A stretch of DNA of 64,000 bases, from assembly GCA_050273025.1 (NCBI GenBank), contig CP158635.1, positions 5,022,001-5,086,000 of the forward strand, in the 5' to 3' direction. Position numbers and translations under genes: made by a program. Within the stretch, counting starts at the first letter, position 1, and every line of letters begins with the position of its first letter. Below are positions 2,085-55,260 of this stretch, piece by piece. Origin of the DNA: Cenococcum geophilum (Eukaryota). The notes beneath the pieces were generated by a model. It saw only the letters and a list, made by a program, of their open reading frames with translations. It searched no databases and had not been told where the DNA came from.

Positions 2085-3035
2085 GTAGTAGTAGATTTAA
2101 TTTACCGTCCGACCCGGTCCCCCTAATGGGTCCACGCAGACTAATTCCTATAGGAAAAGCTTATATTACACTAAGAAAACCTATTTTTTTTGGGTGAATA
2201 AAAAACCTCCAAGGGAAACGTAAGAGGTAATACTTCTAGATAGCATCCGTACTACATTAACGGGAGGAGAAAAACACCATCAGGTTGCTGCTTTAAGACT
2301 TCCCTTACGCGAGAGTGTCTAAAATGCCTGTCTTGCCCTTGTCTGCCATTTAAACCATTTTTACTACGTTTGTGTATTGCCTGTATAAAGTTATATGCCT
2401 ATCCCTAGCTCCTTTTCTAAGTCTCCTGTAAATATCTCCTAATAATAATAACGCTTGCGCTCCGCCTGGGCTTGCATGCTAAGGTCTCTTATCTATTCCT
2501 TTATTAAAAGGTTTCTATAATAGGGTGTATATAACTTAGTATTGCTTTTGCCCTAGGTCCTAACCCTAGGCCCTTATACCTATTTATAAGGTATAGGAGG
2601 ACGCTCTAGTATTTAATAGGGGTAACTAGTCCCTATAACTAGATACCTAGGTTACTAGGTAATGTTAAAATAGGGGGCTTCTGCTACGCTTAAGGCGCGG
2701 ATTGTTTGCGTATATATGTGGTTGCTATATAGTGTATATAGTATTTATAGGAGGGAGGGGGTACGCCGGAGGGATAATTGCTTGTTAATTCGAATGACCG
2801 AACGTGTATAATAGACGTAGTAGCTATATTCAAACTTTTTGCTAGGGCTTACCCCCCAGTAAAAAAATTTCACACTACTACCACTACGTCGCTGCGCAGG
2901 CGCTGCGCAGCTGTATATATGTCTCTGCGTTTGCTCTAGTAGTCTATTGACACGATCTAAATAGAATATTAATAGTAGCTGCTAGGTTCCCGGGCTTTAC
3001 CACGTGGAGGTGCAGAGGCCGATTTCATTAAGCCC
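2085..3035 (-). mobile_element. Non-autonomous ribozyme-capped SINE-like retroposon, copy 1 (family a)
   Basis: TSD TTTAGAATTAATTA at 2071-2084 and 3036-3049. (CTA)n tail, LINE-like 3' stem-loop, collinear with 54115-55022, no recognisable ORF. Confidence 0.85.
2923..3035 (-). ncRNA. HDV-like self-cleaving ribozyme (predicted)
   Basis: P1 GGGCTT/AAGCCC, P2 CTCTGC/GCAGAG, P3 ACC/GGT, L3 TCCACGT, J1/4 GGG, long P4 hairpin, J4/2 GCAAAC. Confidence 0.8.
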
Positions 3036-3528
3036 TTTAGAATTAATTATATAGTAATCTAGTAGGGTTATATAAGGAATCTTTAGCCCTTACTCGGGCT
3101 TACAGCCCTCCTATTCTCCTTGTCAGTTCGCCTCTATATTAGGGTATTACTATACCTACTCTTTACCATATTATCCTCTTCTATTAATTCTTTTATTACT
3201 TAAACCTAGCCTACCTACTCCCTACTATATACCTGGGCAATATGCCTTATATATAGACCAATCCTATACTCTTTTAGGTAGTAGCTAACAGTAAGCTAAA
3301 GGCTTCGCCCTTAAGCAATCTTATAATCCTTTACTTTTTACCTAAGATAACCGCGTATACTATAGAGTAGGTATACTAGTAGATGTCTAGTAGATGGCAT
3401 CCGTATATAACGGTTTATTAGAATATAGATTAGGTCCTCTACTTTACCTAAAACAATCGCGTATACTATAGAGCAGCTATATTAGCAGATATCTAGTAGA
3501 TCGTATCTGTATATTATAGTTAGATAAA

Positions 3529-6800: not shown

Positions 6801-8329
6801 TACTCGCGATAATCGTAGTAATAAAGCACTGGCAATATTATTATATAGGAAGTAATTATCCTATTAAAGTCCTTATAGACTATAATAACCTAGAATACTT
6901 TATAACTATAAAGGTATTAAGCAGTTAATAAGCAAGATAGGTAAAGGCACTATTGTAGTATAATTTTAAAATTATATACCGCCTAGGGAAAACAAATCCT
7001 GCTAATAGGTTATTAAGACGTTTAGATTATAAGACAGGGAGAATCTAGAACAGTATAGGGGAAATAATCCCCATATTATAAAATTTGCTTAAGAAGAAAG
7101 AAGATTCTTTCCCTAAAACTATAGAATTTTATAGTAGGGTAAAGGTCCTAGTAATACAGCTATAAAGTAATATAATTATAAAGCCGTAGGATATAGTTAT
7201 AGACTAGGTTATAAACTAAGTAGATATTATAAAGTTAGCGTATCCTAGAATTAGCGAGAATTCTACGAGATATGCTAGAGGTGCTGCGGCACCTTTAACT
7301 TAACGGCGCATTAGCTACAAGTTTTCGGATCTAAGGGGGATAGGCGAGATACCTATCCGCAGTATAGCATACTATATAATAGTAGAAGAATCTACTAGCA
7401 CTAATAGTTTAAAACGTCTCGTGCTATACCTTAAGTCTATAATAGCGGTAGGCAAAATAAAAGCAAGTAATCTATATAAAACCTTTTTAGATTTTCTTCT
7501 TTAAGCTTAATAAAGGGACGCCTTCGCCTTTAGGGAAAGGTGGAAAGATATAGTAGAGACTAACTTAGCCGGAGTTACTAAGAAGCTATAGTAGTAAGAC
7601 TAAAAGGGTCTATTACGCTTTAAGGGTGCTATATATATCCTAAAGGACTAAGCGATTTAAGACGAAATTCTAAAGGTCTTCTATAATAACCCTTTTAGGG
7701 GTCACTATAGTGCCAACAGAACCCTTAAGGCTGTTTAAAGGAAATACTTTTAGGATAGAATGTTTAAAGAGGTTAAGGACTATATATTAAGGTATAATAC
7801 GTGCTAAAGGATATAGATATCTAGGCATCGCCTATACGGCGAGTTATTAGTGCTTCCTATTCTATAGGGACCTATATTAGAATTAACAATAGCTTTTATT
7901 ATAGGCTTACCCCCTACTAAGATAAGAACTAGAGAGGTTACTAATACTATCTTAGTAATCGTTAATAGGTATATAAAGTTTTTAGAATACTTTACTATTA
8001 TAATAATAATTACGGTAGCAGAACTGGTAAACCTGTTTTTAGAATAGTGCATCGGCAAAATATTGTCCCTTGTAAATGACCTCAGCTGCTAGAAGTTAGC
8101 GTCGTTGGCGGGCTATTAAGGGCATTAACCAACTTGACAAACCAGCCTATGTTAAGTTCATTTAATACGCAGCCTGTGCGCAGCCTACGCGTAGCCTACG
8201 CATAGCCTGCGTAACCTGCGCAACCTATACAACCTGCGCAACCTATATAACTTATAATTTTAGATAATAAAGGCTACTTTAAAGCCGTTTATAAAGCTAT
8301 TAAGATAAATTGTATACACTTCTTTATAT

Positions 8330-8800
8330 AATCTATTATGTCTATATCTGCTACCTGTCTGCATTATCTACCTATCTATATTACCTACCTATCTACATTA
8401 CCTACCTGTCTGTATTACCTACCTGTCTATATTATCTACCTATCTATATTATTTACCTATCTATATTACCTACCTATCTATATTACCTACCTGTCTATAT
8501 TGCCTACCTATTTATATTATCTACCTATCTATATTATCTACTTATTTATATCGCCTACCTATCTATATTATCTACTAGTCTGCATTATCTACCTATCTGC
8601 ATTACCTACCTATCTATATTACCTACCTATTTACATTATCTACCTATCTACATTATCTACCTGTCTATATTACCTACCTATCTACATTACCTACTTGTCT
8701 GCATTACCTACCTATCTATATCGCCTACCTATCTGCATTATCTACCTATCTATATTGTCTACCTATCTATATCGCCTACCTATTTGTATCTGCCTATAGT
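8330..8800. repeat. Degenerate CTACCTATCTATATTA-type tandem array
   Basis: Visible periodicity. Explains the low-complexity ORFs at 8310-8816. Confidence 0.9.
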
Positions 8801-9279
8801 GTCTAATTCAATTTAGGGGAGAGGTCGGCCCGATTAAAGGCTTTGATTGATTCGAATCGTTCTCCATGGCCGTTCGCTGGCTATATATTCGAATAGTGGT
8901 CATCTAAGGTGCCTCCCTAGGAGGCCTTGATTCGATTCGATTCGGTAATAGGCTCTGGATTAATTTAATTGATTAATTGAATCGTTCGTGGTGTTCGCTG
9001 GCTGGTTATTTAAACGGTCGTCGTCTGGTTCTAGTAACGGTCATCTACTAGTTCTAGCGACGGTCGTCTGGTTCTAGCGACAGTTATCTAGTTCTGGCGA
9101 CGGTTATCTGGTTCTAGCGACGGTCGTCTGGTTCTAGCAACGGTTGTCTAGTTCTAGCGACGGTCCTCTGCTAGCTGCCGTTTCAGTGCCTCCTAAAATA
9201 GGGAGGATGTAAGGAAGGGTAAAAAATAAGGTAGCTGCAAAGGGGGTAACTTGGCAGAGGCACGTGCGGAGACCCAATA

Positions 9280-9620
9280 TAGAGCTTCGTATAGAGCCTC
9301 CGTATATAGAGCTTCGCGCAGAGCCTTGTGCAGAGCCTCTATATATAAAGCTTCGTGTAGAGCTTCGTATAGAGCTTCGTGCAGAGCCTCGTGCAGAGCC
9401 TCTGTACGTAGAGCTTCGTGCAGAGCCTTATGTAGAGCATCTATACGCAGAGCTTCGTGCAAAGCCTCTATCGCAGAGCTTTATGCAGAGCTTCGTGCAG
9501 AGCCTCTATCGCAAAGCTTTGTGCAGAGCTTTGTGCAGAGCCTCGTGCAGAGCCTCGTGCAGAGCCTCGTGCAGAGCCTCTGTCGCAGAGCTTCGTGTAG
9601 AGCTTCGTGTAAAGCCTCTT
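9280..9620. repeat. ~12-bp GCAGAGC(T/C)TCGT tandem array
   Basis: Visible periodicity. Explains the ORFs at 9193-9635. Confidence 0.9.
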
Positions 9621-9679
9621 GAGCATATAACTTAAAAATAATATATTATATTACCTTAATTGTATATTAAGGAATATAT

Positions 9680-9920
9680 AAGTTAGTTAACTGCGTGTTA
9701 TTTAACTTTTAAATATATTAAGTTGGTTAATTGCAGGTTAATTACAGGTCAATTGTGTGTTATTTGACTTTTAAATATATTAAGTTGGTTAACTGCGTGT
9801 TGTTTAACTTTTAAATGTGTTAAGTTGGTTAACTGCGTGTTATTTGACTTTTAAATATGTTAAGTTGGTCAACTGCGTGTTATTTGACTTTTAAATATGT
9901 TAAGTTGGTCAACTGTATGT
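9680..9920. repeat. ~40-bp subterminal tandem repeat
   Basis: TAAGTTGGTCAACTGCGTGTTATTTGACTTTTAAATATGT, about 5 copies. Confidence 0.88.
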
Positions 9921-11183
9921 TAATTATGCGAAACGCGCTTAACAAAGTCGACTTGAAACCCAGCCTGCGAATATTTTCCCGATATGGCTCTTATTTAGTA
10001 CACTAAGGGGAATCGTGTCTAATAGAGGTACCGTATTTAACAGTGCATTTTAGTCTTTATTCTGTCTCTTATTAAAAATATAGTAAAGAATAAGTACTGC
10101 CTTCTACCTATAAATAAACGGGCAAACAGAGCGTCTAAATACGTTATTAGAACACTACCTCCGCTACTATATCAATTATTAATAGGATAATTAGACATTA
10201 TAGTTAGCTTTAGCGCAGCACGTATATAACATAAGTATCTATAGCAGTATAAAAATGACCCCTTATAAAGCATTATTTGGGGTAAAAGTAAATAACCCCT
10301 AGAACATTAAGGACATTGTTCCTAAAAGAGAGGCACTAGCAGCGTCTAAAAGAATTAAGCAAATAAGAATTCGCAGAAAGGAACTTAAAAAGCACTTACT
10401 AGACGCCTAGGCTGTGTAAAAAAGGTACTATAACGAAAAATATATGCTAAAAGAATTTAAGATAGGAGACGAAGTCTTACTATTTATAAAAAATATCCAA
10501 ACAAAACGCATTAAGAAGAAGCTGGATTACCAGTGGCTTAGACCCTTTAAGATAGTTAAAAAAACTAAAGAAAACCAAGCCTATAAATTAGAATTACCGA
10601 AATCTTATCTAATATATTTTATATTTTATATTTCCTTACTAAAGCTATACTGGAGAAAAGATAGTGCGGAACCGCCCCTATCTAGAGAAATTAATAGGGA
10701 ACTAGAATAGAATATAGAAGACATTTTAGACTAAAGATGGCGCCAGAAAAAGCGCGAATTTTTAGTTTATTAGGAAGGATACTTTTAGGTATATAATAGT
10801 TAGGAACCTAAGGAGTACCTTTAGCTGGGATATAATACTATAATTAAAACCTTTCTAAGAACTAAAGGTAAAGACTTAGAAATAGTTCCGGATATACTAT
10901 AGGTAAAGTAATAGGGAAGACCCTATAAATTAAAACTATAAAATTAAGTATAGGTATTAAGAACGGAAACGTTTTGCTATTATAATAGGGATCCTAAAAT
11001 CCTATAAGAGGAAGCCTATAGGGATCTATAGGAAAACTACTAGGGATACTATTTAAAGAAGACGCTGTTTAAGAAGGAGTAGTAGTACTATAAGAAGTGG
11101 CCTTAGGGATTTAGAAAGATCCCCTAGGGATAAAAGGAGAGTATCTAGCCTAGTACCAGAAATACGCAGTAAAGTTAATAGTA

Positions 11184-12197
11184 GTAGTAATTCTTTAATT
11201 AACGTCTGATACGGATCCTACTAGCCCACGCAGACTACTCCGTTATAGGGGGAAAACTTATAATTTATATAAAGAAAACCCTGCAGTTGGGGGAAGGAAA
11301 AACCCTATAAGCCACCTTAGTAGGATAAAAAAACCTAAATTGCCATATTTGCACGTAGCAGCGGCCCTACGGGCCTATAGCACGTCCTCCTCCTTAGATG
11401 TTTTAAACTCCTTAGGAACTACTACTTCCTTCTCTAGCTTATTAAAGCTGGGGTTCACTATATCCCAGCTAGGCCCTGCTAATTAATTGCTGTGTCTTAT
11501 TGTCTTATTCCGTATCTTACCTATCCCCTATATACTATCTCTTATAGACTATTACCATATACGCCTTGCCTCCCCCCCCCCTAGAGCTATTAAAGGCGTA
11601 AGGGGGATTTATTTGTTCTAACTACCGTAATACTAATAAGCGAGCGGGATATATTGTGTATTTGGGTATCTTTTATGCTTAGGCCCTAGCTAGGCCCTTT
11701 CTAAGGGCACTACTCCGTTAAAAGGAGACAGGGAAAACCGTGGGTCATAATCTAGGCTGCTAGGTAGTATTCGGTAGTTAAAAACGGCGAGTAACCGCAT
11801 ACTCCGCGGGCGATTGCCCTGGGGGTTAGGAGGGGCCGTATATTTACTCATTCGTTTATTTACTCCGCGTTCACTCATTCATTAATATAAAAGGTTGTTA
11901 ATGCTTTCTATTAGGGGTTAGGGGATGCTATTAAATGCTATGCATCCATATTGGATCGTATAGGTGCCTTAGATAGGAGAATAATATAGTAGTTATTGTA
12001 TTATAGAGGGCCAACAGTAGTGGTTTTTAAGATCTCACCATCCGAAAATTTTTCACCACCGCCCTTAACGCCCACAACCACCACCAGGTCCTGTCCACAC
12101 GCTATACGACGTCTCTGCGTTGGCTTTAGATCTAAACTTTAAAGACTAGGTTCGTAGCCGTCACCGCGTATAGGTATAGAGTCCGATTTCGACGGCC
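11184..12197 (-). mobile_element. Non-autonomous ribozyme-capped SINE-like retroposon, copy 2 (family b)
   Basis: TSD GTAAAGTTAATAGTA at 11169-11183 and 12200-12214. (CTA)n tail. Last ~60 nt closely match the LINE 3' end at 843-900. Confidence 0.85.
12113..12197 (-). ncRNA. HDV-like self-cleaving ribozyme (predicted, 85 nt)
   Basis: P1 GGCCGTC/GACGGCT (7 bp, G1.U wobble), P2 CTCTAT (RIP of CTCTGC)/GCAGAG, P3 ACC/GGT, 7-nt L3, J4/2 GCCAAC. Confidence 0.8.
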
Positions 12198-17177: not shown

Positions 17178-19082
17178 CATTAGCATTTTATTAGGGTGCT
17201 AAGATCCTAGAGGCCTCCTGATAGGATTTTAACTTTCTTAGAGGTCCTAATCGTCCTAGTAGGCTCCTAGTAGGCTCCTAGCAGGATTTTAATTTTCCTA
17301 ATTATCCTAGTTGTCCTAACAGGATCTTTAATTTCCTAATCGTCCTCTTATAGTCCTATTAGGGTCCTAATAGGAAACTAGTATTTCCTAATCGTTCCTA
17401 ACAGGCTCCTAGCAGGATTTTAATTTTCTTAATTATCCTATTAGGTTCCTAACAGAATACCCCTAAGCGACACCCCTTTTAACCCCCCCCTAAAGCGATA
17501 CCTCCTATACACACCCCTTAAGATACCCCCCTAATGCGACACCTTCCCCACTGTAATACCCCCCTAATGGGATACCTCCCCCCTAATGCGATACGTCCCT
17601 ATATACGCGTACGCGCAATATATAGTGCTATCGGGTCCCCACTATATTCCTAATAGCCTACACATACCTCTACTAAGTTACCTCCTTTATAGTCACCCTA
17701 TTCTTTACCCTTCCTTATATCCTCCCTTAGGAGGTACTAGAATAGCAGCCAGTAGAGGACCATCGCCAAAACTAGACGACCGTCGCCAGAACTAGACGAC
17801 CGTCGCCAGAACTAGACGACCGTCGCCAGAACTAAACGACCGTCGCCAGAACCAGACGACCGTCGCCAGAACTAGACGACCGTCGCTAGAACTAGACGGC
17901 CGTCGTTAAAACCAGACGACCGTTATAAGAACTAGACGATAACCTTTTAAATAACCAGCTAGCGAAGACCACGAACGATTTAATTAATCAATTAATCGAA
18001 TTTGATATTAGCCTATTACCGAATAGTATTAAGGCCTCCTAGGGAGGCACCCTAGACGACTACTGTTTAAATATATAGCTAGCGAACGGCTATAGAGAAT
18101 GACCTGGATTAATTAGAGCCTTTAATTAGGCCGACCTCTCCCCTAAATTAAATTAGATACTAACATAGGCAGGTAAGTAGGTAGGTAGGTAGGTAAGTAG
18201 GTAGGTAGGTAGGCAGGTAGGCAGGTAAGTAGGAGAGGACTATTTTTAAAACCAGACGATAATCGTTTAAACGACCAGCCAGCGAATACCACAATTGATT
18301 TAATTGATCGATTAAATCGAACCAGAGCCTTAATATTAGCCTATTACTGAATTAAATTGAATTAAGGCCTCCTAGGGAGGTACTCTAGATAACTACCGTT
18401 TAAACGTATAGCTAACGAACGCCCATAGAAAACGATTTAAATTAATATAATTAATCGCAATTAAATTAAGCAGAGCCTTTAATTGGGCTGACCTCTCCCC
18501 CGAATTATAGATATAGACAGGTAGGTATAGATAGGTAGGCACAGATAGGTAGGACAGGCAGGTAGGTAGGTAGGTAGGCAGGCACTAGGCCTAGTTAGGA
18601 AATCAGCACACGGCCGGCGGATTATTGGGAACACCGCCAATTGACGATTTGGAGCCTCCGCGAGAGGCTCCTTAGTTAATCGCCTAACGCCCAAGCGATT
18701 GTAGAGCTCTATAATAGACACAGGCGGTAGATAAGAGAAATTAATTTAGATTATTTAGATTATATATAATTAAATTAATTATATATTTTTTAACTAGCTG
18801 TAAATACTAGAGTATTAATATACCTTATTTTTAAATCTAGAATTTTTATTATTGTCCTAATGGTCCTAATGGTCCTAATGGTCCTAATAGTCCTAAAGGT
18901 CTTAGAGGTCCTAGAGGTCCTAGAGGTCCTAAAGGTCCTAATAGTCCTAGTGATCTAGGCGACCTCCTAATAGGTTCCTAATAGGATGCTAAGTGTAAGT
19001 GTCTCCTAGAGCTCCTAATAGCCCTAATAGGAGCTATTAGGAGCTGTTAGTACTGTTAGGAGGCACATATATTTTGCTAATA
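17178..19082 (-). mobile_element. Non-autonomous TIR element (variant 2), heavily RIPped
   Basis: Inverted copy of 31151-33014. Termini CATTAGCATTTT...TTTTGCTAATA. Flanks AG/AA (2-bp TSD with one G>A change). Confidence 0.85.
17765..17940. repeat. 20-bp tandem repeat GACCGTCGCCAGAACTAGAC, about 8-9 copies
   Basis: Head-to-tail with no spacers. The same unit occurs at ~9020-9170 and ~32260-32325. Confidence 0.92.
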
Positions 19083-21536: not shown

Positions 21537-23631
21537 TTTTTTTTCTATCCATTGTATTATACTACGTACAATACTGCGCATGCAGCCTTAGGCTATGGCG
21601 CTATAGTTCTATATACATAAATCCTTTCTAGGCAGCTTAATATGTACTAGTAGCTATGTCCTAGTAGTTTATAGTTTCCTAGTAAAACACTAAGATACTA
21701 CAACTACTAGGGAATAAGAAAATGGTAAGAAAAACCATAAGAAATCCTAACCCCTATCTCTGTCCTTTTGCAATTTATTTCTGTTCTTTTGCTCTCTAAT
21801 ATCTTTTTAAGAGTCTAGTAGGAGTTGCCTCCTTCTAGAATCCTATCTGTTTTATTCTTCTATAGAATCTTCTTTACGTACTAGTTTAGCAGCTTTAAGA
21901 GTCTCGCAGTCTTTACTATTAGTAAAGTGTTTTTCTTTATAATTAATGCAAAGAGGGGTGGTATGCTGGCAAGGCTTGCCTATTATTATACAGGTAGAAC
22001 AGGAATGGTCTTTAGATAAATATGCAGCCGCATAGTATCTGCAGGCCCTAGTAGAGCACCTGTCTCCTATATGGCCAAATTTTTGGCAGCTCGTGCACTG
22101 CGTAGTAGGAGAGACTTTGAGGTATTTTACTACCTTAGTAGCTGTACCTGCAATTGATATCTCTTTTTGCTTAAGGATTTCTTGTCTTTTTTCTTCGTTT
22201 TCTATAGTAAAAACTATAGAGCCAAATCTGGTCTGTAGATTGTGTCTTTTTTCGCTAGATGAGATCCATCTAGGTAGTCCTTGTATCTTTATAGGATTAA
22301 AGGTCTTAATTTCTTCTTTTAGAAGCTTAGAGCCTCCTTCTCCTAGGAAAGGTAGGGTAGGAACCCCATGGGCTATAACTTGAACCCATGGTTCCAGTTT
22401 TTGTTCTCTTTAGAAGGTAAAGCAGTTATGCCAGATCTCCTTGTATTTAACTAGGAAATCTGCATTATATTCCTTTGTAATAGTAAGGAAAATATTTTGT
22501 TTTCCTCTGGTTCTAGCTATAGACGCTAGTACTGGTTTTTCTACTTATAGTTTTAATGTAAATAGTTAATTGACTTTGTTTCGTATCGAGAAGATATTTA
22601 GAGGTTGGTCTTTTTCGTCTGTAATTAGGACTAGCTTCCTTTCTTATAACTGCTTTTTCTTACTTCTAGTAGAAGTAGGAGAACTCCTACTAGAAGGAGG
22701 TGGTAGTAAGGAGGGTAGGGAGGATGAGGAAGGGAGGTTCTTCCTTAGTCTTTCTGCGTAAGTTTCCTTAGTAGGGGCTACCTCCTTACGGAGAGCCCTT
22801 ACTTCTTCTACTAGCCCTTTTAGGACATCTTTTTCCTTTTCTTTTCCTTTTATAAAGGGATTTTCTCTTATTAGGATACTCCTTATATAGTCCTCTAGCT
22901 ATTTAATTAATTCTTTTTTTTCTTCTTCTTCTAGCCCTTTATATGCCTGGGTTAGGCTTTTTAGAGCCTTTTATAGGTATTGTTCTGGAGAAAGGGGAGG
23001 AAAAGGTATAGGTGTACTAGGTATGCCATCCGTAGTAGTTATTAGTTTCTTTTTTATAGGTTTTTGGTTTTCTTTTTCAGGAGAAGTTTAAGGATATTCT
23101 CTTTTCTCTCCCTTCTTAGACAAGCTGGGAGGAGAAAGAAAAGAAGATAAAAATAGAAATCTATTATCATTTCCTTCTATAGGGGTTTCGCCTATAGACT
23201 CGTTGTCGTCACTTATCTCTATAGGAGGTTTCTTTTTAGGCCTGGTAGGCCTTGGCATCTTATAGGGGGAGTTTTCTAGTTTTTACTATCCTTATACCCT
23301 TTTTCCTTACTAATCCTACTAGAGGATTTCTGGGGAGATTAGGTTTAAAGGCAGTAGTAATACTAGACCCCTAGTATTGGTGGTGGTGGTGGTGGTGGTT
23401 TTGGTGTTCCTGTCCGTGCCTCGCTTACAAGCTAGGACCGCCCCTAAGAAGAATTTTCTGTTGGGGGAAAGGGGGTAAAACGACAATTAAATCCACCTAT
23501 AGCTCGCTAAGCAGTAGGAATTGGGTCTTGAAAGTTGGAAAATCGATTGTTTTTGGTGGTAAGATGGGTATGCGTAAGTTTTGAAGTGCGGCGCTTCCTT
23601 TTGGTAAGGTTGCATGTGTGGTAAAAGTTTT
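21537..23631 (-). mobile_element. ORF1-only poly(A)-tailed non-LTR retroelement
   Basis: 13-bp TSD GCAGAAGTGCCTT at 21524-21536 and 23632-23644. T-run tail on the + strand. One gag-like frame and no ORF2. Confidence 0.88.
21700..23258 (-). pseudogene. LINE ORF1/gag-like protein with zinc knuckles, few stops (3' end approximate)
   Basis: MPRPTRPKKK... WVQVIAHGVP... PRWIS... FGSIVF... PTTQCTSCQKFGHIGDRC. Confidence 0.85.
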
Positions 23632-33014: not shown

Positions 33015-33587
33015 TAGTTAACCGTATATACGTTATCTATTTAGATAATATCTTAATCTACTTAGAAGATAAGGATTAACATAAGTAATATATCCGCGAA
33101 GTACTGGAACATTTAGATAATTAGGGCCTCTACGCTAAGGCGTTAAATTATATCTTTAACACTAAGTAGGTTAAGTTCCTAGGTTATATTATAACGCCTA
33201 TAGGTATAGTTATAGACCTAGTACGGGTATAGATAATTTAGGAGTAGCCAGAGCTAGAGAGCTATTAGGATATTTAAATGTTCTTAGGCTTTACCAATTT
33301 CTATAAGCGCTTTATTTATAACTACTTAGACGTCACCTAATACCTATCTAACTATATTATAAAAGCTTCCTAAGACCTAATCTAAGGAGTAAAAAGCTTA
33401 AAGGCGGTAAGGGAAAAAACTAAAAAGGGACTAACTAAATAGTATAAGCTATAGTTATAGCCCAGAAAGGTTTAAAAGGCCTTTTAAAAACTTTACGCAA
33501 AGTTTATAAAAGCTCTATTACTACAGCATTTTAACCTAGATTAGCTATTAATAATAATTATTAATGCATTAAATTTTGCCTTTATTA

Positions 33588-36500
33588 ATAATAATTCATT
33601 ACTTAACGTCCGATTTAGATCCCTATTGGGCCCATACGGACTACTCCTTATTTACATATAGGGAGAAAACTCTATTTAAGAAAAATAAGAAAACCCCATA
33701 ATCTATCTCCCTGCCTTTTAGGACTCGCCTACTTAGCGCCTATAAGTTGCCTATAGTGCTCTACTACCTTACTATTTAACCTCCTTAAGAACTACTACTG
33801 CCGTAACAAGCCTATGGACGCGCTAGTATTATAAACTATTACTCTACTACTATAGAGTTACTAGGGGGCACCTACTACTCGCCCCCTTACCTTTTATTAC
33901 TATTTCCCTTGCAACCTAAAACTAATTTAGTACATTTTAACTAATAAGCCACTAGGTAACCGCCTTAAGGCCTTTTTATATTAAAAGTAGTGTATTATAG
34001 TTCTCTATGCCAGCTACTAAGAGCATTATTTCTTAATTAGTGCGTAGGGGGCATAGCAGTATTATATGTTTTGGTATCTGTCTTAGCCAGCTATATTCGC
34101 ATCTTAGGCTACTTACTAGAACACCTACCCAGTAAAGCCAATCTTTTAGTCCTATTATTCCTGTTCTTAAGAGTATTACTATTATATTTTCTACCTTTAT
34201 TAGGCCTTCTTAGAGCCCTTAGGTATTTACCCCCTATAGTATTAACCATGTTATAGCTTAGGTTCGTCTTACCTAAATCAGCCCCTATACCTTTAACTTC
34301 TATTTACCTCTCCAGCGTTAGTCTAACCAGTATTATATTATAGTAGATGGTTTCCTAGCGTTCTTATATATTCTACTTTAACTCCTTTCTCTATTTTACT
34401 GTTATCTTTACTAACCTCTTATACGTCTCCCTTCCTCCTCTATATAGGCCTAGGCCCTAAAGCGGCACTATTCTTCTTTTACTTTCTTTACCTGTTTCTC
34501 TAATATCTCTTCCCTACTTTAAGGTTATTAGTTTATTCTCCTACAGGGCACCCTAAGGTCCCTCCATAGTTTACTTAGGCGTATCTTAATATACTTTATA
34601 ATATTAGAGTTACGTTTATTTTATATCCTTTATATTACAGCGGCTTTAATATATAACTATAGGGGGGGAATATTAGATTCCTTTTTAAGCAGTGCTGTGG
34701 CCGTTCGCTTATACCCACCTATAATACTCTAAAGGCAGGCTATTTAGACCTTTTAAAGTGATTTAAGGAGTAATTTAGGGGGGCCCTTCTTAGTTTCTCT
34801 AATGGCCCAAATACTAGATCTATATATTATGGTTAGCTAAATAACTACTATATATAGTAGGCGTAACCTCTAGAAGTATGGACCCCATATAGAATTAACA
34901 ATCCTAGATAAAGCAATAAACTATACTTAGCCTTTATAGGCCGCTTGCGCTATATATACGCTCCACTAAAGCTTACTATCTACCTATACTCCTAATACCC
35001 TTAGGCCCTAAACTAGTTAACCCCTAAAGCCTTAGATGCGAATTATATGCTAAAGATCTGCAAATTAGTTGCGTTTTCTTATAAAATAGATTAGCTAGTA
35101 TTTCTCTAGTAAGAATTAGACTCTATAACATTTTACCTATTCTATATAAGTATTATAGGCTTTCTCTAGTATTCTGCAATTCTCTACGGCTATTAGCCCG
35201 TATATAATTAGGTTTATATTATTAATAAAGCCTATCCCCTAGGTCGCCCCTTCCTTAAAGAAGTTAAGTAGGTTACTTATAAAGAAAAGGAAGAGTATAG
35301 GCAAGAGGGGTAATCCTTATAGTATTTCTGTTATAACTATAATAGGGGGGCTCTGGTATCTACTAAAGACTAGTAATATTTCTTTCTAGCCTATAAACCC
35401 TTAAATAAATTATATAATCCATTCTAAAAAGCCCTTTACCCTAAGGATATATAAAAGACGCTTATAGGGTATATTATTATAGGCACCACTAATATCTAGG
35501 TTAAGCATTAATACTATAAAGTCCTTTCGCATCGCCTATATAGATTTAATAGTGGCAGCAAGTAGCGTAAGTACTAATAGTGTTAAGCGGTTCTTTCTTA
35601 CCCCCATTTAGCTTTATAGTAATAGGGCGTGTTTCTCTACTATATTTACTATATGTTCCGCTATTACCCTTTCTAAGATCTTGCTAAGGGTATTTTCTAA
35701 GGCAATAGGGCGGCAGCTTCCTAGGATTAAGTAATCTACTTTACCTTCTTTTTATAGGACAACTATTATTATAGATCTTCTAAGTCGCGGGTAATAGCCT
35801 ATAGCAAAGCATACTCTAGCTATATCTACAAGCTAAGGTACTATAAGTAGCCTATAGGTTTTTAGGGCCTTATTTAGAATCCCATCTAGTCCTAGTACTA
35901 TATTATTTAAAAGGCGGCTAATAGTTCTAGCCATTTCCTCTATTATTATATCGCTGTTAACCCATAGGCAAGTTACTAGTGTTTCGCCCGTGATATTACT
36001 AAGGTCTACTAGAGCTAGTTAGGGGAAAAACCTTTCTATAAGGATCTTTGCCTTCTTATTATTGTTATTTATAGCCTGTAATTCTCCTACTCTTCGTAGG
36101 GATAATAAGTATAGGTCTTCTGCTAGGCGCCCTACCTTTTTCTTTACCTATTTTGCTATAGCCTAAAGGCCCTTATTATAGGGGAGGCTTAGGTTAAAAG
36201 TATGCTTATTTATAAACCGTCTCTAGTTATTCCTTACTTCTTTTTTTAGGGTATTCTTTAGCTAGTTTCTTATGTCTTTATATTGTCTCTTATCTTTAGG
36301 GTTATGGCTACTTATATATTTCCTTCTTACTCGTCATTAGCTAGTAACTAGAACTGCGCATTATATAGACCATATATATCGCGTATAGGGGCCTAGTTTT
36401 AAGATTGGGCAGTACTCTTCCAGCCTATTTTTAATCGCTGCCTAGATCCTTTCTAGTCTTTAGTTAATTTCCTTAGGGGTAGCTAATAAGCCTCGCTTGT

Positions 36501-39154
36501 TTAGTATTAGGTAGATTTCTTCTAGGTCTTAGAGTTATTATTTAACTGCATTAAGGAAACTATCTGTCTTAAGCTTCCTTATTATATATCTTTTTTTATT
36601 TAATTACGCTTTGGTATCTAGGTCTAGCTATATCTAAATAGGGATATAGTCTAAGGTAAGTGCCCATTCTTCTTTAGGGTTATACCTTTTAAGTCTCTAG
36701 TATAGGCCTTCGTCTATAAATATAAGGTCAATTATACTTCTAGCGGTACCTTATTACCATATAATTGCTCCTAGGGGGGTAGCTAGCTTAAGGCCCCAGA
36801 TATCTATAGCTCTTAGTAGGCACTCTAACTATTAATCTACAGCAATATAGATGCCCCCCCACTATAGGTAGTAGAGGTTTATATCTCCTAGTAAAATAAA
36901 CTCTATACCTTCAGTTTTTAGTAAGCTTATTACTAATATAATATTCTCTATTTATAGGACCCCTTTAACCCTAGGGTTATACACATTAATAATTTATACC
37001 GGTCCCCTATATATTTAAATTATTATAACTATAATATCTAGGTTAACTGCCTACTATAACTATAAGGATAGGCTAATAGCCTTACTAATTATAAAGTACA
37101 CGCGTATAGCTGCTTTTGGTTCATATAGGAGCTAAAATCCTTAGGGGCAGTATATTAATTATATAAAGGTATTATAATACGGTTCTTATATAGTAAGGAT
37201 ATAATATTTCTCTAAGTCTAGACTGTCTAGTAGGGGCCTTATAAGGCGGTGGTTTATATTGCCGCAGTTATACTATATAATAGATAGGTGGCGGACCCCC
37301 AGCAAGGGTCCTTTAACTCTCCTTTATTCCTCGCTTCTTCTATTTCTACTTTCTCTAAAATATTCGGAGCTTCTATCTCTTATATCTATACCCTAGTTAC
37401 TACTTATTTTATATAGAGCTTTCCATTCCTATATTTTATATTCCTATTAGCGCTTCTATATCTAAATCTATTATTATTACCGGTTCTTCCCCTATTCTTA
37501 CTAGTCGGCTATATACCCTTTATAGGTCGGCTGCGAATATTATATTTACCGCATTAAGTCTAATTCTTAATTATCCTAGTCTTAAGCCTGCTATTGCTAT
37601 CCATAGGGGTCTTCCTACAGGGCGTCCTCTCCCTTATATCCCCTATAACCCTTATATCCCTAATCGGTCTAGTAATATCGCGCGGCGTCGCTTCTGGCCC
37701 GTTAAGGCTTGGGATAGCTAGCCTAGCCCTCTAGTATTAAAGGTAGGAAACGCTAGAAAGGCGCCTACGTCCCCCTAGCTTATCGCCTATTATTTCCATT
37801 TATATAACCTAGCGTATAGTTATTCCCATAGCTATTAAGCCCTTACCTTCCATCTTCTATATTTAATGCAGTCTTCTCTTTCCTACGCCTTATATATACT
37901 TCGGTAGCAGTTCGCGCATTTTATTTAATCTTAATTTAAGCAGTATCTTGTATCGTAGGGGCCTGCATAGTAGCCACAGCATACCTATACTGCGTATATA
38001 GATTAGGTGTATCCCTATTATACACAGCGATAGTATTATTTTAGGTGTAGTCTATAGTTATAAAGCCTTATATTATATATAAGGCCATTTATAATTATTC
38101 CTTTTTAAATAAGGAGTTTTTATATTCCTAATATATATATACTAATAATAAGGGAGCTATACGTTTATCTGGCGTCTCCCTAGTAAGTCTCTAGCAACCC
38201 TTGTATCCTCTTATTATTCTTATTATATACTTAGTTTACATTTTCCTATTAAAGCTATTAAATTCGGGTAATTTCGAGTCCTAGTATAAGGCGTTCCGTT
38301 TATCTTACTATCTCCTATATAATTGCTATATTATCCGCCTAGCGTCCCTTTTCTACCCTAAGGCTTATAGGAACCGCTAGGACTTTAACTAGGTAATCCT
38401 CGCGAAGTACTTTTATACTAATACGTTCTCCTAGCCTATCCCCTACCCTTATAGCTCGTTCCTTTACCTATTAGTCCTTTAAGGTAACTCTAATATCTCC
38501 GCTCTTAAGGTGTCGGACTATAATAGTATTGTAAACCTCTTTACATATCTTTATAAGGACTTCTGTTTCTAATTATCCCCTAAGCCCCTCTACTTATTCT
38601 ATATTTAGTTATATTATAATTATATACCCGTTTATTAACTTAAGGGGAGTAGGTTCCCTATGCTATAAAAGCGCAGCTATGGCGGCCTAGGTGCGGTTCG
38701 CCGGTAAGGGGGGGTTATACTTATTTTTAATTTTGCTTAGCCATTAGAGGATTTAATTAAGGGTTTACTAAAGGGGCGCCTAAGATTCGCTAAACTAGCA
38801 GAGCCATTCTGCTAGCTATATTAGTTTGTTATAGCTAACGGTTACTCCCCTACAATTCTAGATACTAGACGCGTCCAATAGGCTTTATATTTTATTAGAT
38901 ACCTTCTTAATAGAGGTATTTCCGCTTTATAGTGTGGTATTCGCCCGTCTTTATTATAGAGGGCCATTGCTAGGCATAGTTCTAGCGGTCGCGCGCGAGT
39001 GCGAGCCACCGTCATTCAATGTGTGCCTCCCCTGCGATGCATGCATCTTAGGGGGATTCTCTAGGTGTTTTTCAGGGTTCTTTTAGTTAGTTTTAGTCTT
39101 TTTAGGCCAGGTGCAGCAAGAGCTCCTTTTTTCTGTAATTAAGGAGCTCTATAT
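33588..39154 (-). mobile_element. Full-length Tad1-like LINE, RIP-inactivated
   Basis: 14-bp TSD TTTTGCCTTTATTA at 33574-33587 and 39155-39168. ORF1 from ~39015 with knuckles ~37800-38000. ORF2 endonuclease from ~37290, RT RPIAL ~35710 and GF(VDD) ~35225. (ATT)n tail. Confidence 0.93.
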
Positions 39155-42100
39155 TTTTGCCTTTATTAGTATTCTACTATAACCTAATAGGTATCCAGAT
39201 GCTACCTAGCTCTATTAAAGACCAGTAGTATTTTATAGCAGAAAATTCCAGGGACCTAAAGTTAGGTATTATACTCACGATAAGGAACTACTAGCTATAG
39301 TTAACTGCTTTAAATAGTGGTAATACTACCTTAAGCACGCGAGCTATACCACTTATATACTCTTAAATTACTATAATCTACGCTACTTTATAACTATAAA
39401 GGAGCTTATACCTTAATAAGCTAAATAGGTAAAGGAGCTTATATAATTTAATTTTAAGATTAAATATAAGTTAGGGAAAAACAACCCTACTAATAGACCG
39501 TTATAACGGCTAGACTATACTAAAGGCTTTAAAATAGGAGAAGGAAAATAGATAATAGATATCTTACTCCCTATATTATAGAATAAGCTCCGGGTATAGG
39601 ATGCTTAAGCACCTATAGCTCTATACACTAAGTCTTAGGCAGTGCAAGCCCTATTAGTTTCTACTAACGTTCCAGCTAGTACCTAGTCTGTTACTAATAA
39701 GGGTCTAAATATACCTAGATAGGACATCCCTAATATATTCTTGGAACCTAGTAATATACTATCCCTAATTACTAAGCTATCCCCTTAAACCAATAGCGAA
39801 GCTATTAAGCAATTGGAACTCAGAGCCCTATAATAACTAAAGGACTTTAACCTTATAGCGGCCTTCCTAACGTATACGCATTAAAGAGTTATAAGATTTA
39901 TAGTACTATTTAGTCTTATACTTAAAGTAGTATAGGACAAAATAGCTTTTATTTAGGAACTATCTAAAAGGTTAACGGATCTCATCTATAAGGTATAATA
40001 GAGGGACGCTTCCTATACTATCCTTAATGCGGAAGTAGACCGGAAATATAATAAAAAGGAAGCTGCTAGGCGCTACTATTAGGAACTAAACCCAATGGGC
40101 CTACTATATAAAGGTAGTAAGGTTTGGGTGCTATAAGAAGCAAATCTACAATAGAAGATTCTTATAAAGAATTATAATAATCCTCTAGGCGGCCACTATA
40201 GTTAAGTAAAAATAGTAGAATTACTTTAGCGCAAATACTATTGGCTAAGGCTTAATTAGGAAGTAAAGGAGTATATTAGCTATTATAAGAAGTGTTAAGT
40301 ATATAAGATCCGCAGGCACAAGCCATAGGGTCTACTTAAATTAGTTCCCCCCACTAGTAAGCTATAGCAATATTACACTATAGACTTTATTACAGATCTC
40401 CTGCTATCTAAAGATAGCTAAAGATAAATATATAATTCGGTCCTCATACTTATTAATAGGTTTTTAAAGTACGTTTAATATCTTCCTATTAATAAGACGA
40501 TTAATATACAAGCGCTAGCCTACCTAATTAAGGAGAAATGCTTTCTTAAAGTAGATTAGCCATACTTTATTATTACTAATAGGGGCAGCATCTTTATAAG
40601 CCAGTACTGGTTAAACCTATGCTTCTATTTAAAGATAGACTACCGTTATAGTACAGCTTTTTATTTATAAATAGATAGGTAGATAGAACGCTAGAACTAG
40701 GAACTAGAGTTTTACCTATAGATATATTTAAACTACTAGCAAGATAACTAGTATAAGCTACTTCTGTACGCGGAGTATACTTACAATCTAAAATAATATG
40801 CATTATATAAGTATGCACTAATCCAGATTACCTATGGCGTTTAATTATTTAGGTTTAATAGTATATCTAATAATTACTAGCTAAGGCTGTATAATTAGTT
40901 ATAGGATCCTACCAAGAAGTTTAAGGATATCTACTAAAGAGTATAAGGATACCTTTAGGAATAGGAGGAGTAATAGAAGTATATAAAGCAGAGCCTATAA
41001 AATGCCTAAGAGTAGTAAAGACTTTGGTATAACTATTAGCACTAAGATAAGCATTTTGGAGTAGGCGATAAGGTTCTATTATATTTAACAAATATTAAGA
41101 CCTATTAACTATTAAAGAAGCTTAATATAAGATACCTAGGTCCCTTCTAAGTTAAGAAACGAATTAGTAAGCTAGCCTATTATCTCTAACTACCCCCATC
41201 TATGGCTTATATGCATTTAGTGTTTTATATAAACCTACTAGAGCTATAGCATAGACCATTACTAGAAAAGAACTTCCGTCTAGGCCCAATTAAATACCCT
41301 AAGGTAGTAGGCGAGCGGTACGAGGTTAAAGCTATACTACGCTATAAGTCTGTTAAGAATAAGCTTTAATTTGAAGTTAAATGGCTAGGCTAGCCCGCTA
41401 AGGACTCTATATAAGAACTAGAGAATTACCTTAATTATTGCAAAGATATTCTAAAAGAGTATTAGGACCAAGGTCTATAATCTACAAGTTATAAAAAGCG
41501 CTCTAATATTATAGTGTTATTGCGACCTATAAAGAAAGCTTATAAAAAGAGTAAATAGGTTAAATTGGATATAGAATAGATAGGCTCCGGAAACTGTAGG
41601 GATAGGGCTACGGCCTAAGGCAGGGTAGGTCCTTAGCCTTTTTACGTATATAGTATAGAGTTAATAGGGCATTTTGCTAGAATTGTATTCCTATTTATTA
41701 ATCTATACTAGGAATATTGTTCTTAGGGCTTCTAAGCCCTTTCTAAAAGCCTTATAAGGCCTTTTCAAGCACCTAATTAAGGTCCTTAATTGCTACTACG
41801 TATAAGAACGAATCCTAAAAGTCTAAACCATAAATGCCCAATTTAAAAAGCCACTATGCCTTATTATTAGGAGTAGGATCAGTATCTATTGGGCTACTAA
41901 GTAATGGCTGATAAGAATGGGATCTAGATCCCTTAGTAGGGGTATAAGTAGGTATTAAAATAGGGGTAGGACGATAAGGTGTAGCTAGAGCAGAGACTCT
42001 TAAACGCTTAATATTAATATTAGGTCCAAACTAATACTAATAAAGCTCTTGCGGCGTAAGCTTATAGTTAATAAAGACATAATTAAGCCTAAAATGAATA

Positions 42101-51664: not shown

Positions 51665-54106
51665 ATAAAGGAGATAGAAAGTATATAGCTTTCTGTATAT
51701 AATAGAGACTTTTTAAATACCTAGTAATACTATTTAGTATAAAGAACGGTTCTAGTACGTTTTAGTAATATATTAATAATATACTTCGCGAATTCCTTAA
51801 TATATTTATTACCGCGTATATTAATAATATTTTAATCTATTTGTTTTTACCTTCTAAATATTAAAAGCACGTTTAAATAATCCTTAAACGCCTATAAGAC
51901 GCGGGCTTATAATGCGATATTAAGAAATATAAGTTCTATATATCTAAAGTTATATACTTAGGCCTAATTATATCCCATAATAGAATTAAAAGAGACCCTA
52001 AGAAAATTGCTATAATTATAAACTAGGAAAGTCCTAGTGGTATATAAGATATTTAAGAATTTCTAGAATTCGCAAACTTTTACCGTTAATTTATTAATTA
52101 CTTCTTAAAAATTATTTAGCTATTAGTAAACTTAATAAGGAAGAATATAAGATTTAAATGGACTACTAAATGCGAATAAGCTTTTAATAACCTAAAATAT
52201 TATTTTATAACTACTTTAATTCTTACCTACTTTAATCTAGACCTTAAATGCATTATTAAAACAGACTCGTCTGATTATATATTAGAAGGAGTGCTATCGT
52301 AATATAATAAGAACGGCGAGCTGCGCCTAGTAGCCTTTCTCTCCTAAAAACTTACCCCTACTAAATTAAACTATAAGATATATAATAAGGAACTACTTAT
52401 AATTATTAGATGCTTTAAATAATAGCGTCTAAAACTTAAAGGATTGTTATTCCTAATACGCATACTAATGGACTATAAAAACCTGCAGTACTTTATAACT
52501 ATAAAGCAATTAATATAGCGCCAAATTTATTAGGCCGAATACCTTTTATAATTTAACTTTAAGATTATATACTAACTTAGTAAACTTAATTAAAAGCCTA
52601 ACTTATTAATATAATAATTATAGGACTTACCTATAAACGCCTCTAATAAATGGATTATAAATTAATTAAAAATTCTACTGCCCCCTAAATACTTTAAGAG
52701 GCTACGCCTTATATTTTTAAATACGGAGCTTAATAGGAATAAATTAGAAATTAATAAGTGGGATATAAAAATTAATAAATTAATAGAGTAAAAATATAAG
52801 AATAACCCCTAGGTAGTAGATATAATTAAAGTAATTTAAATAAGGAAATAGTAATATAAGTATATTATACTCGCTAAATGCAAAATCCGTAATAATCGGT
52901 TATACTATTAATAGAAGATAGTAATCCCGAATTCTAAACCCTTATAATTTAAGATACTTAAATTTATATACGATTCCCCTATAGTAGGGCACCCTAGCTA
53001 TATAAAGACCTATAAGATTATCTAATAAGTATATTATTGGCCTATAATGCACGACTATATATAAAAATATGTTTAAGTATATAGAATGTATATATATAAG
53101 AAGACCTCTTATATAAAAAAGTAAGAAGTACTTTAACTATTACTAATTCCAATATAAAGATAGCGAGATATCTTAATTAACTTTATAGTTAACCTACTTA
53201 ACAGTAATAGGTTTACGAATATTATAGTAGTTATTAACCGTCTTATAAAAATATAATATATGATTCCTATAGACTTAATTAATGTAATATTAGTAGCTGA
53301 ATATTTTATTAAGTACGTCTTTAAGCTATATAGACTTTCTAACTTAATAATATCTAACTATGGAAGCTAGTTTATTTTAGACTTCTAGTAAGCCCTATAT
53401 AAACGATTAAGTATATAAATATAACTCTTAACTACATTTTATTTAGAGATAGATAGTTAAACTAAAATTATAAACGCAATTATAGAACAATATCTATAAA
53501 TATACTACTCCTACCTATAAAATAACCAGGAAAAGTAGCTACCTTTAGCTAAGTTTACTGCGAATAATATAAGAAATAAATTAATAGGTGTAACGCCGTT
53601 CTACGTAACTTACGGATAAGATCCTTAACTTAAATTTAAACTATAACCCAAAATTAATATAATAGGACCTATAATTAAAAGGATTTAACTAATTAACATA
53701 TATAACTTTGCTAATTAAATAAAGTAGTTAACGGAACTATTATAAAGTAAATTAGTATACGCTTAAACGGTATAGAAATAGCATATAAATAAAGGACAAG
53801 ATCCCGTATAGAACTTTAAGGAAGGTAATATAGTTTACCTAAATATATAAAACCTAAAGACTTAATAACCCTTAAAAAAAAACTAGACTAGAAGTTTACG
53901 GGCCTATACTAAATTAAGAAGAAACTAAGCCCGTACGCTTATAAGCTTAAACTGCTAACTAAAATAAAAATATATCTAACGTTTTACGTAAACTTATTAT
54001 AACCCTTAAAAAGTAAACCTATAACTTATAAAGTGCTACCGCTACCTTTTATAATTATTAATAACGGTAATAGTTCTTACTTTATTAACTTAATTAATAA
54101 TATATA

Positions 54107-55260
54107 TATATATAAGATTCAATTTACCGTCCGACCTGGTCCCCCTAATAGGTCCACACAGACTAATTCCTATAGGAAAAACCTCCTTACTAAGAAAAAC
54201 CCCATTTTTAAGTGTACAAAAAACCCCCAGGGGAGACGTGAGAGGTAATATTCCAGATAACATCCATACTACATTAACGGGAGGAAAAACACTGTTAGGT
54301 TGCTGCTTTGAGACTCCCTTTATATAGGAGTGTCTAAATACCTATCTTGCCCCATCTGCTATTTAAACCATCTTTGCTATATTTATATATTGTTTATCTA
54401 AGTTATATGCCTATTCCTAGCTCCTTTTCTAAGTCTCCTATAAATATCTCCTAATAAATAACACTTATATTCCGCCCGGGCCTATATACTAAGGTCTCTT
54501 ATCCACTTCTCTATTAAAGGGTTTCTACAACAGGGTGTATATAACTTAGTATTACTTTTGCCCTAGGGCCCAAGCCTAGGCCCTTATACCTATTTATAAG
54601 GTATAGAAGGATAATCTAGTATTTAATAGGGGGCCCAATCCCTATAACTAGATACTTAGGTTACCGGATAATATTAAAATAGGGGGCCTTTGCTACGCTT
54701 AGGGCGCGGATTGCTTATATATGTATATAGATACTATACGGTGTGTGTAGTATTTATAGGAGGGAGGGGGTACGCCGAAGGGATAATACTTGTTAATTTA
54801 ATGTCTAAATATGTATATTAGAGATATAGTAGCGGTGTTTAAACTTTTTTGCTAAGGCTTACCCCTTAGTAAAAAATCTTTGCACTACCACGACGTCGCT
54901 GCGCAGGCGCTGCGCAGCCGTATATACGTCTCTGCGTTCGCTCTAGTAGTTTATTAACACAATCTAAATAGAACATTAATAGTAGCTACCAGGTTCCTGG
55001 GCTCCACCGCATAGGGGTACAGAAGTTGCTTTTCTGGAGTCGTCTTTTTAACTGGTCTGGCGCTAAGGCCTATAAAAACTCTGCTGTTCTAACGGCGTCA
55101 AGGGTTAAGTATTCGAAGGCCCCCTCTAGCCATAACGTAACGCTGCTGCATCAGTAATAGACGAGATCCTCTCTCTTAGCTTAACCATGCGGACAAGATG
55201 AGACGGAAAGGAACCCCCATAGGACCGTATGGGTCAGATCTCGATTTTAGTGTTCCTTTC
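54107..55260 (-). mobile_element. Ribozyme-containing SINE-like retroposon, copy 3 (family a, with ~220-nt 5' extension)
   Basis: TSD TTAATAATATATA at 54094-54106 and 55261-55273, splitting the gypsy E chromodomain. Collinear with 2094-3015. Confidence 0.85.
54930..55041 (-). ncRNA. HDV-like ribozyme (predicted, RIP-damaged, internal)
   Basis: P1 GACTCC/GGAGCC, P2 TTCTGT/GCAGAG, P3 ACC/GGT, L3 CCTATGC, J4/2 GCGAAC. Confidence 0.68.

Follow-up and report, generated by a model that had tools for sequence, protein, structure and literature searches.

Where exactly does a short dispersed repeat begin, and what has placed its first base there? The question is raised by a 951-nucleotide (nt) element residing on the minus strand, 3035 to 2085, of a 64,000-nt stretch of Cenococcum geophilum DNA (GenBank assembly GCA_050273025.1, contig CP158635.1, positions 5,022,001 to 5,086,000 of the forward strand; hereafter, the window, numbered from its first letter). 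The original prediction held that the 5′ end of this element, referred to below as copy 1, coincides with G1, the first base of a ribozyme resembling that of the hepatitis delta virus (HDV), and it does: the 5′ boundary of the element is ribozyme G1, since a 15-nt target-site duplication abuts this base and the upstream flanks of ten members of the family are mutually unrelated. Judged from its sequence, the segment 3035→2085 is very probably a dead, approximately 0.95-kb non-coding retroelement lacking long terminal repeats (non-LTR), similar to short interspersed nuclear elements (SINEs), headed by an HDV-like ribozyme, mobilized by a long interspersed nuclear element (LINE), and altered by repeat-induced point mutation (RIP).

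The element is enclosed by two exact copies of the duplication TAATTAATTCTAAAG (3049–3035 and 2084–2070, minus strand) and ends in a (TAC)3 microsatellite tail (2085–2093). The last G of the duplication, G3035, doubles as ribozyme G1 (an overlap of 1 nt); the remainder of the 5′ copy, TAATTAATTCTAAA, occupies positions 3036–3049, G3035 being the fifteenth shared base, and the 3′ copy occupies positions 2070–2084. The duplication had been expected directly outside GGGCTT, with an ambiguity of 1 nt; GGGCTT is indeed found from 3035 on the minus strand and the position stands, but the duplication is longer, at 15 nt, than had been noted. In a random control, 12 nt or more were in common in 5 of 3000 pairs of window stretches spaced by 940 nt. 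The 15-nt duplication, the simple-repeat tail and the lack of terminal repeats are features of non-LTR retroelements, and copy 1 displays all of them. The same borders are seen in the summed repeat depth of the DNA runs X1/X2, amounting to 587/11196 in the bin 3004–3049 vs. 9.45/290 in the bin 3050–3095, and to 1184/19931 in the bin 2084–2129 vs. 137/2872 in the bin 2038–2083. Hence, the depth drops about 40- to 60-fold just beyond 3049 and some 7- to 9-fold just beyond 2084, so the high-copy family ends where the duplication places its ends. Soil, root, and fungus-labelled runs matched the element with shares of 0.10–0.46, from which no conclusion on habitat was drawn.

A boundary at G1 with a flush duplication would be equally expected if transcripts started at G1, e.g., from an internal promoter spread over the first ~100 nt in the manner of Pr77 of the L1Tc element, the ribozyme fold being then secondary or vestigial. 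Such an arrangement has a precedent, since in L1Tc, promoter and ribozyme are described as sharing one stretch of 77 nt (PMC3383444), and the conserved motif GAAAUCGG, situated between helices P1 and P2 and having no assigned role in the fold, could be read in its favor. Overall, we consider this explanation unlikely, for reasons residing in the fold and in its relatives.

The ribozyme fold spans 113 nt of the minus strand (3035→2923); its lower coordinate, 2923, originally given as the start of the feature, is the last base of P2′. Base-by-base mapping recovers all elements of the fold in the order and with the spacing of HDV. P1 (GGGCUUA, 3035–3029) is followed by the 11-nt J1/2 (AUGAAAUCGGC, 3028–3018), P2 (CUCUGC, 3017–3012), P3 (ACC, 3011–3009), L3 (UCCACGU, 3008–3002), P3′ (GGU, 3001–2999), and P1′ (AAAGCCC, 2998–2992); then come the P1.1 guanines G2991/G2990, pairing with C3006/C3007, J1.1/4 (GAAC, 2989–2986), the long P4 hairpin (2985–2936), J4/2 (AGCAAAC, 2935–2929), and P2′ (GCAGAG, 2928–2923). 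The letters conserved in the HDV core are represented by G3035, C3007/C3006, G2991/G2990, and C2933, the latter being the presumed catalytic base of J4/2, which we take to be the equivalent of C75 of the HDV ribozyme. The cleavage site is predicted between A3036 and G3035; self-cleavage by HDV-like ribozymes, 5′ of their first base, yields a 2′,3′-cyclic phosphate and a 5′-OH. The L3 sequence TCCACGT and the GGG providing P1.1 were found as anticipated (3008–3002 and 2991–2989), as were the arms CTATTAATAT (2975–2966) and GTGTCAATAG (2953–2944), forming nine pairs and one A·C mismatch (A2970 with C2949) in the inner part of the longer P4.

Starting 11 nt past the ribozyme, there is a perfect GC-rich 9-bp hairpin with a 3-nt loop, GCTGCGCAG-CGC-CTGCGCAGC (2891–2911, minus strand), also correctly located by the original prediction. 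The same letters recur in a second copy of the element (54918–54898); GC-rich perfect hairpins of 9 bp occur in the window only in these two copies, and none arose in 20 block shuffles. In the relatives, the position of the 2911–2891 hairpin is taken by a GC-rich stem with differing pairing registers.

Taken alone, copy 1 is weak evidence for a ribozyme, and the case rests on its relatives. These were collected by scanning metagenome contigs for the core motif ACCTCYACGTGGT-N7-GGGAAC, a pattern that fixes only P3, L3, P1.1, and J1.1/4. The scan returned at least 119 loci, of which, among the matches listed, 102 were non-redundant after dropping identical flanks. The complement of the free N7, sought 16–30 nt upstream, formed a perfect 7-bp P1 in 74 of these 102 matches, and a further 10 had six of the seven pairs; when the upstream region was confronted with an unrelated N7, a perfect P1 appeared in 2.2% of cases. 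The remaining 18 matches had five or fewer pairs, and many of them look, by eye, like bacterial protein-coding repeats; they were counted in the P1 statistics and dropped from the comparisons of core letters and of P2 and P4. The 23-nt core string gave no match with up to three mismatches in 100 shuffles.

At least 18 distinct perfect P1 helices were encountered, with both strands changing at positions 3–6. The P4 of the relatives is represented by many unrelated hairpins of varied length, closing right after GGGAAC and before (A/U)GC(U/C/A)A. The distinct P2 helices number at least 24; a free partner search finds a helix of at least 5 bp for 61% of the mismatched pairs; hence, the length of P2 by itself is weak evidence, and the support for this helix comes from its fixed position together with the 24 helix variants. 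The family of copy 1 comprises eight loci among the scan matches listed. In a ten-row alignment of this family including the full pseudoknot, standard pairs occupy 95.0% of the 339 pair cells, vs. 31–44% when the partners are slid by one to three columns. Both sides have changed in seven of the pairs; given that RIP produces transitions only, part of these two-sided changes may have arisen by coincidence, and the controls with slid partners give the fairer measure. The J4/2 cytosine is retained in nine of the ten rows and a G1–C pair at the cleavage site in six of the ten. Most sister families have an extra C between P2 and P3, which in the family of copy 1 pairs with G2928. Copy 1 itself scores 136.9 bits with the model of its own family. 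Thus, on homology and covariation, the segment 3035→2923 can be regarded as a real HDV-like ribozyme with the nested double pseudoknot of the HDV type.

This covariation speaks against the promoter: the pairing of P1, P2, and P4 is clearly kept by selection across unrelated sequences, which a DNA promoter does not need, and different families have only catalytic-core letters in common, i.e., G1, the CC of L3, the GG of P1.1, and the J4/2 cytosine. The motif GAAAUCGG mentioned above is confined to one subgroup of families, including that of copy 1, where it lies in a J1/2 of 9–16 nt (3028–3018 in the window) and has no evident role in folding; in other families, J1/2 is only 2–3 nt long.

The same four core features bear on another possibility, namely that the fold has been kept for a non-catalytic job such as binding of the LINE protein or translation start, with no cleavage in the family. 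The R2 and L1Tc ribozymes have also been proposed to bind protein or to act like internal ribosome entry sites (PMC6765202), so the idea is not without parallel. Still, the element is non-coding and there is nothing to translate, the letters retained across the families are those of the catalytic core, and close fungal variants are reported to cleave (PMC5640933); we deem a purely non-catalytic fold very improbable, somewhat more so than the promoter. The preferred reading, that of an element headed by a self-cleaving ribozyme, is further illuminated by the flanks of the relatives.

In three sister families, all conservation is lost exactly at position −1, as documented by 32, 15, and 7 independent flanks among the matches listed. 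One sister family of ~815 nt has escaped mutation: in this family, all seven loci examined (six independent insertions) have a duplication of 12–15 nt ending one base before G1. The flush duplications and the edge of conservation at G1 form the pattern that integration of a self-cleaved RNA predicts, and this cause, invoked from the start for copy 1, fits the evidence from the sister families. No duplication could be read in the relative L018, whose 3′ end is disrupted. Base −1 is A in eight of the ten family members (3036 in the window; L018, L024, L037, L049, L059, L076, and L118), which could be due to a target preference or to untemplated addition.

What has become of copy 1 after its insertion? 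The RIP changes suspected in it are supported by an excess of transitions and by dinucleotide indices. Between copies 1 and 2, there are 135 transitions and 31 transversions, and the comparison of copy 1 with other copies in run X1 revealed 170 places with transition vs. 23 with transversion kinds of change. For the window, TpA/ApT is 1.70 and (CpA + TpG)/(ApC + GpT) is 0.45, values of the RIP type by the usual thresholds for these indices. Copy 1 has A3029 where other family members have C, and A2998/A2997 where they have G; hence, the seventh P1 pair is lost (A·A) and a 6-bp P1 is left. At the same time, L3, P3, P1.1, P2, and C2933 of copy 1 match the family consensus, in line with the earlier assessment of its core as the best preserved one: copy 1 keeps the consensus in L3, P3, P1.1, and J4/2, whereas copy 2 is altered in L3 and P1.1.

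The non-coding body of copy 1 (2094–2890, minus strand) contains no open reading frame (ORF) with a family match, and no reverse-transcriptase match was found in the element; its relatives likewise lack coding capacity. Its last ~90 nt (about 2185–2094) constitute a 3′ module common to the ends of two LINE copies in the window (33583 on the minus strand and 911 on the plus strand) and to all three short elements of the ribozyme-headed type present there. Common modules of this kind are the usual form of tail sharing between SINEs and LINEs and point to trans-mobilization; together, the lack of coding capacity and the 3′ end held in common with a LINE of the same window are properties of a non-autonomous, SINE-like element. 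The first of the LINE copies, degraded by RIP, lies at 33583–37407 on the minus strand and includes ORF2 (37407–34330; endonuclease and reverse transcriptase), a 3′ untranslated region, and a (TAT)n tail near 33590; the second, at 1–911 on the plus strand, is the 3′ part of another copy of this LINE, truncated where the window begins. ORF2 carries the Exo_endo_phos_2 and RVT_1 domains in a frame broken by RIP, and is 66.6% identical to the intact 1026-residue metagenomic protein P0001 over all 1026 residues. A scan of viral contigs for the DNA of this LINE relative gave no match.

An autonomous LINE with the ribozyme at its head was sought among the relatives. No ORF of 250 aa or more was seen directly downstream of their ribozymes in 5-kb flanks, nor did a reverse transcriptase follow the ribozyme in the flanks examined. 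Pfam searches on L017, L037, and L059 returned only DUF6589 (L017:6600–7800 (+), E 3.4e-38, ~1.7 kb downstream), apparently unrelated. Three candidates were rejected: the reverse-transcriptase piece of L075 belongs to flanking DNA, and in L007 and L040, the reverse-transcriptase sequence is upstream of the ribozyme, not downstream. In L013:1–2434 (−), an RNase H domain and a C-terminal cysteine motif of the LINE type lie 1.2 kb downstream of the ribozyme, on its strand; with no endonuclease or reverse-transcriptase domain in between, it looks like an internally deleted LINE, and this single case is a hint that the ribozyme heads derive from LINEs.

Transcripts of the family were found in RNA run X23, where the depth reached 751 for first mates on the plus strand vs. 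16 on the minus strand, which was read as sense transcription. The one-sided coverage over the ribozyme and 3′ regions stems from diverged family transcripts: 1586 of 2084 RNA reads are less than 90% alike, and 88% continue into unlike sequence, so the reads come from other copies.

A number of observations weigh against the interpretation developed here. The best Rfam match of copy 1, drz-Agam-1 (RF01787), aligns end to end from 3034, one base inside G1, and its P3-L3-P3′ core ACCUCCnCGUGGU is identical to the model consensus; yet it is a mosquito sequence, the P4 of copy 1 is more than twice as long, its J1/2 has 11 nt, and the score is 17.5 bits (E 0.81) vs. the cut-off of 37 bits. The Rfam scan of the window revealed no family at the gathering score, and the minimum-free-energy fold of copy 1 is not better than that of shuffles (z −0.16). 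A start with GGG is found in only six of ten family members, the others being one or two bases short or having one or two extra, and both copy 2 and a third element of the window have two extra bases between the duplication and G1. No ribozyme was detected at the 5′ side of the LINE (37000–41500) with the family model, Rfam, or a RIP-tolerant pattern; neither the LINE 5′ end nor any ORF1 was located in the window copy, which may be 5′-truncated. In the RNA run, 5′ ends do not pile up at 3035, an uninformative result since the reads come from diverged copies. Finally, with the seventh P1 pair lost and two G>A changes in P1′, copy 1 may now be slow or inactive; from its sequence, we put the chances that it still cleaves, perhaps slowly, at about even.

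The weak Rfam score and the lack of a thermodynamic signal in the fold would also be expected of a chance resemblance, i.e., of an AT-rich repeat with a ribozyme-like end and a fortuitous flanking repeat. To this explanation we attach almost no weight, since it is rejected by the shuffles, the P1 control, the duplication control, the family alignment, the duplications of the sister families, and the family-model scores. The best relatives likewise stay below the Rfam cut-offs (HDV_ribozyme, 39.1 bits with a cut-off of 50; drz-agam-1, 36.9 with 37; HDV-F-prausnitzii, 38.2 with 44), and, as far as the scores show, fungal sequences of this kind are absent from the Rfam seeds.

If copy 1 is read as a ribozyme-headed, LINE-mobilized element, its history may be envisaged as follows. 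A master copy would be transcribed within a longer RNA, probably by RNA polymerase II. Runs of T stop RNA polymerase III, and the run of seven T at 2866–2860, 170 nt into the element, makes transcription of the whole element by this enzyme unlikely. The ribozyme would then cut 5′ of G1 and remove the upstream sequence, as suggested by the fold and by the biochemistry of other fungal HDV variants. The ~90-nt 3′ module and the (TAC)n tail, the sharing of which is observed, would recruit the LINE protein in trans, and target-primed reverse transcription would extend to the 5′ terminus of that RNA. Reverse transcription up to this end would give an insertion starting at G1 with a duplication of 12–15 nt, and both features are observed. 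After the insertion, C>T and G>A changes of the RIP type would have removed pair 7 of P1 and a single pair of P4, sparing L3, P3, P1.1, P2, and the J4/2 cytosine of copy 1.

The other ribozyme-headed elements of the window have fared differently. Copy 2 (54091–55043, minus strand) is 82% identical to copy 1; its ribozyme (55042–54927) scores 118.6 bits with the family model, its L3 and P1.1 have decayed, and its flanking duplication is imperfect (AGTTAAAAAG vs. AGTTAATAAAG), with 2 nt between the duplication and the start of P1. Element 3 (11184–12197, minus strand; ~1014 nt), belonging to a different family and ending in a (TAC)n tail, has its ribozyme at about 12197–12110; it was found with a model built from the family alignment (12199–12110, 38.8 bits, E 1.2e-8). 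It is flanked by the exact 15-nt duplication TACTATTAACTTTAC (12214–12200 and 11183–11169), with 2 nt (CA) before G1; its P1 (GGCCGUC/GACGGCU) includes a G1·U wobble, and its L3 and P1.1 have decayed. The metagenomic locus L024:1–1590 (−) combines the ribozyme of the copy 1 family with a body resembling the post-ribozyme sequence of element 3 (window 12100–11184), which suggests that heads and bodies may be shuffled between families. At another locus, L008:2886–2954 (−), an HDV-like ribozyme of minimal form, scoring 33 bits with the HDV-F-prausnitzii model, is present on a contig with six tRNA genes, a setting that resembles the phage “theta” ribozymes described beside tRNAs (PMC10879173).

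Elsewhere in the window, there are tandem arrays at 8256–8867, 9266–9620, 9645–9946, and 17714–17959, with periods of 17, 12/26/39, 40, and 20 nt, respectively; the long open frames of the 17-nt array are repeat artefacts. Part of an integrase of the Ty3/Gypsy type (SH3_Tf2-1, E 4e-11) is located at 10420–10707 on the plus strand, and an open frame of 185 aa at 21855–22409 on the minus strand, which includes a CCHC-like cluster of cysteines and histidines and has no Pfam match, may be what is left of a retroelement gag/ORF1. Several classes of retroelements have left their remains in the window.

How does this element compare with the known systems? HDV variants were described by Li and Breaker in 2017 in 26 fungal species (230 sequences), two representatives of which cleave at the base of P1 (PMC5640933). 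Their traits, as given in that report, include a C–G pair at the cleavage site, one additional nucleotide (a C in most cases) inserted between P2 and P3, and a P4 in which a loop E replaces part of the helix; the G1–C pair in six of ten rows of the copy 1 family and the extra C in most sister families may correspond to the first two of these traits. The host group is apparently the same, judging by the ascomycete-type RIP signature of the window. The fungal variants were said to have “widely variable gene associations” and words beginning with “transpos” or “repeat” do not occur in the main text (PMC5640933); by contrast, as far as a comparison by description goes, the ribozyme in the window forms the very start of a retrotransposed element that has a duplication and a tail derived from a LINE.

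HDV-like ribozymes are documented at the 5′ ends of R2, RTE, Baggins, and L1Tc and of the non-autonomous SIDE and NARTc (PMC6765202). R2 and R2 SIDE resemble the present case in that an HDV-like ribozyme sits precisely at the 5′ end and in their processing from a co-transcript, and R2 differs in being reported only from 28S rDNA of animals and in using a restriction-like endonuclease (PMC3414825, PMC3774820, PMC6765202). In addition, SIDE is portrayed as a short derivative without coding capacity, in which the ribozyme head and the 3′ end recognized by the reverse transcriptase have been retained and which is mobilized in trans (PMC3414825, PMC3774820). Unlike R2, the window elements are dispersed, have duplications of 12–15 nt, and are paired with a LINE of the apurinic/apyrimidinic endonuclease (APE) type. 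A likeness in design is offered by L1Tc/NARTc with L1TcRz, a dispersed APE-type LINE and its non-autonomous partner, both with HDV-like heads and released from long co-transcripts according to the accounts available (PMC3185411, PMC3383444, PMC4035085). This likeness is one of design: these are trypanosomatid elements, from another kingdom, and the 77 nt of L1Tc are also a promoter (PMC3383444), and the LINE copy of the window, in contrast to L1Tc, shows no ribozyme. With classical SINEs (tRNA, 7SL, or 5S head), the window element has in common the short non-coding body, the tail of the partner LINE, and duplications of the length made by LINEs; it differs in that its head has the fold of an HDV-like self-cleaving ribozyme rather than being an RNA polymerase III gene, against which the run of seven T also argues.

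In our literature search, HDV-like ribozymes were nowhere connected with retrotransposons of fungi; the publications by Webb 2009, Webb and Luptak 2011, and Ruminski 2011, which were outside this search, may bear on the point. A 2026 paper gives the link between ribozymes and retrotransposons, in the text accessible, only for “plant and metazoan genomes” (PMC13725137). Thus, the fungal, SINE-like setting of ribozyme-defined 5′ ends appears to be unreported, and the principle is already known from animals and trypanosomes. A broader possibility, to which we give about the same weight as to its opposite, is that the hundreds of “orphan” fungal HDV-variant ribozymes are the heads of a widespread, undescribed SINE-like class consisting of several families of ~0.8–1.0 kb, with a ribozyme as the 5′ module and a LINE-derived tail, and mobilized by APE-type LINEs. 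If true, such a class would explain the “variable gene associations” of these ribozymes.

Overall, copy 1 and at least ~90 metagenomic relatives put the fungal HDV class at the very start of short retrotransposed elements that are flanked by flush duplications and end in tails derived from LINEs. The known principle of retrotransposon 5′ ends made by ribozymes is left unchanged and is extended to short elements of fungi. Annotators gain a simple rule for locating the true 5′ ends of such repeats in RIP-rich fungal genomes, and the fungal HDV variants, for which no biological role was given in 2017, gain a concrete, testable job.

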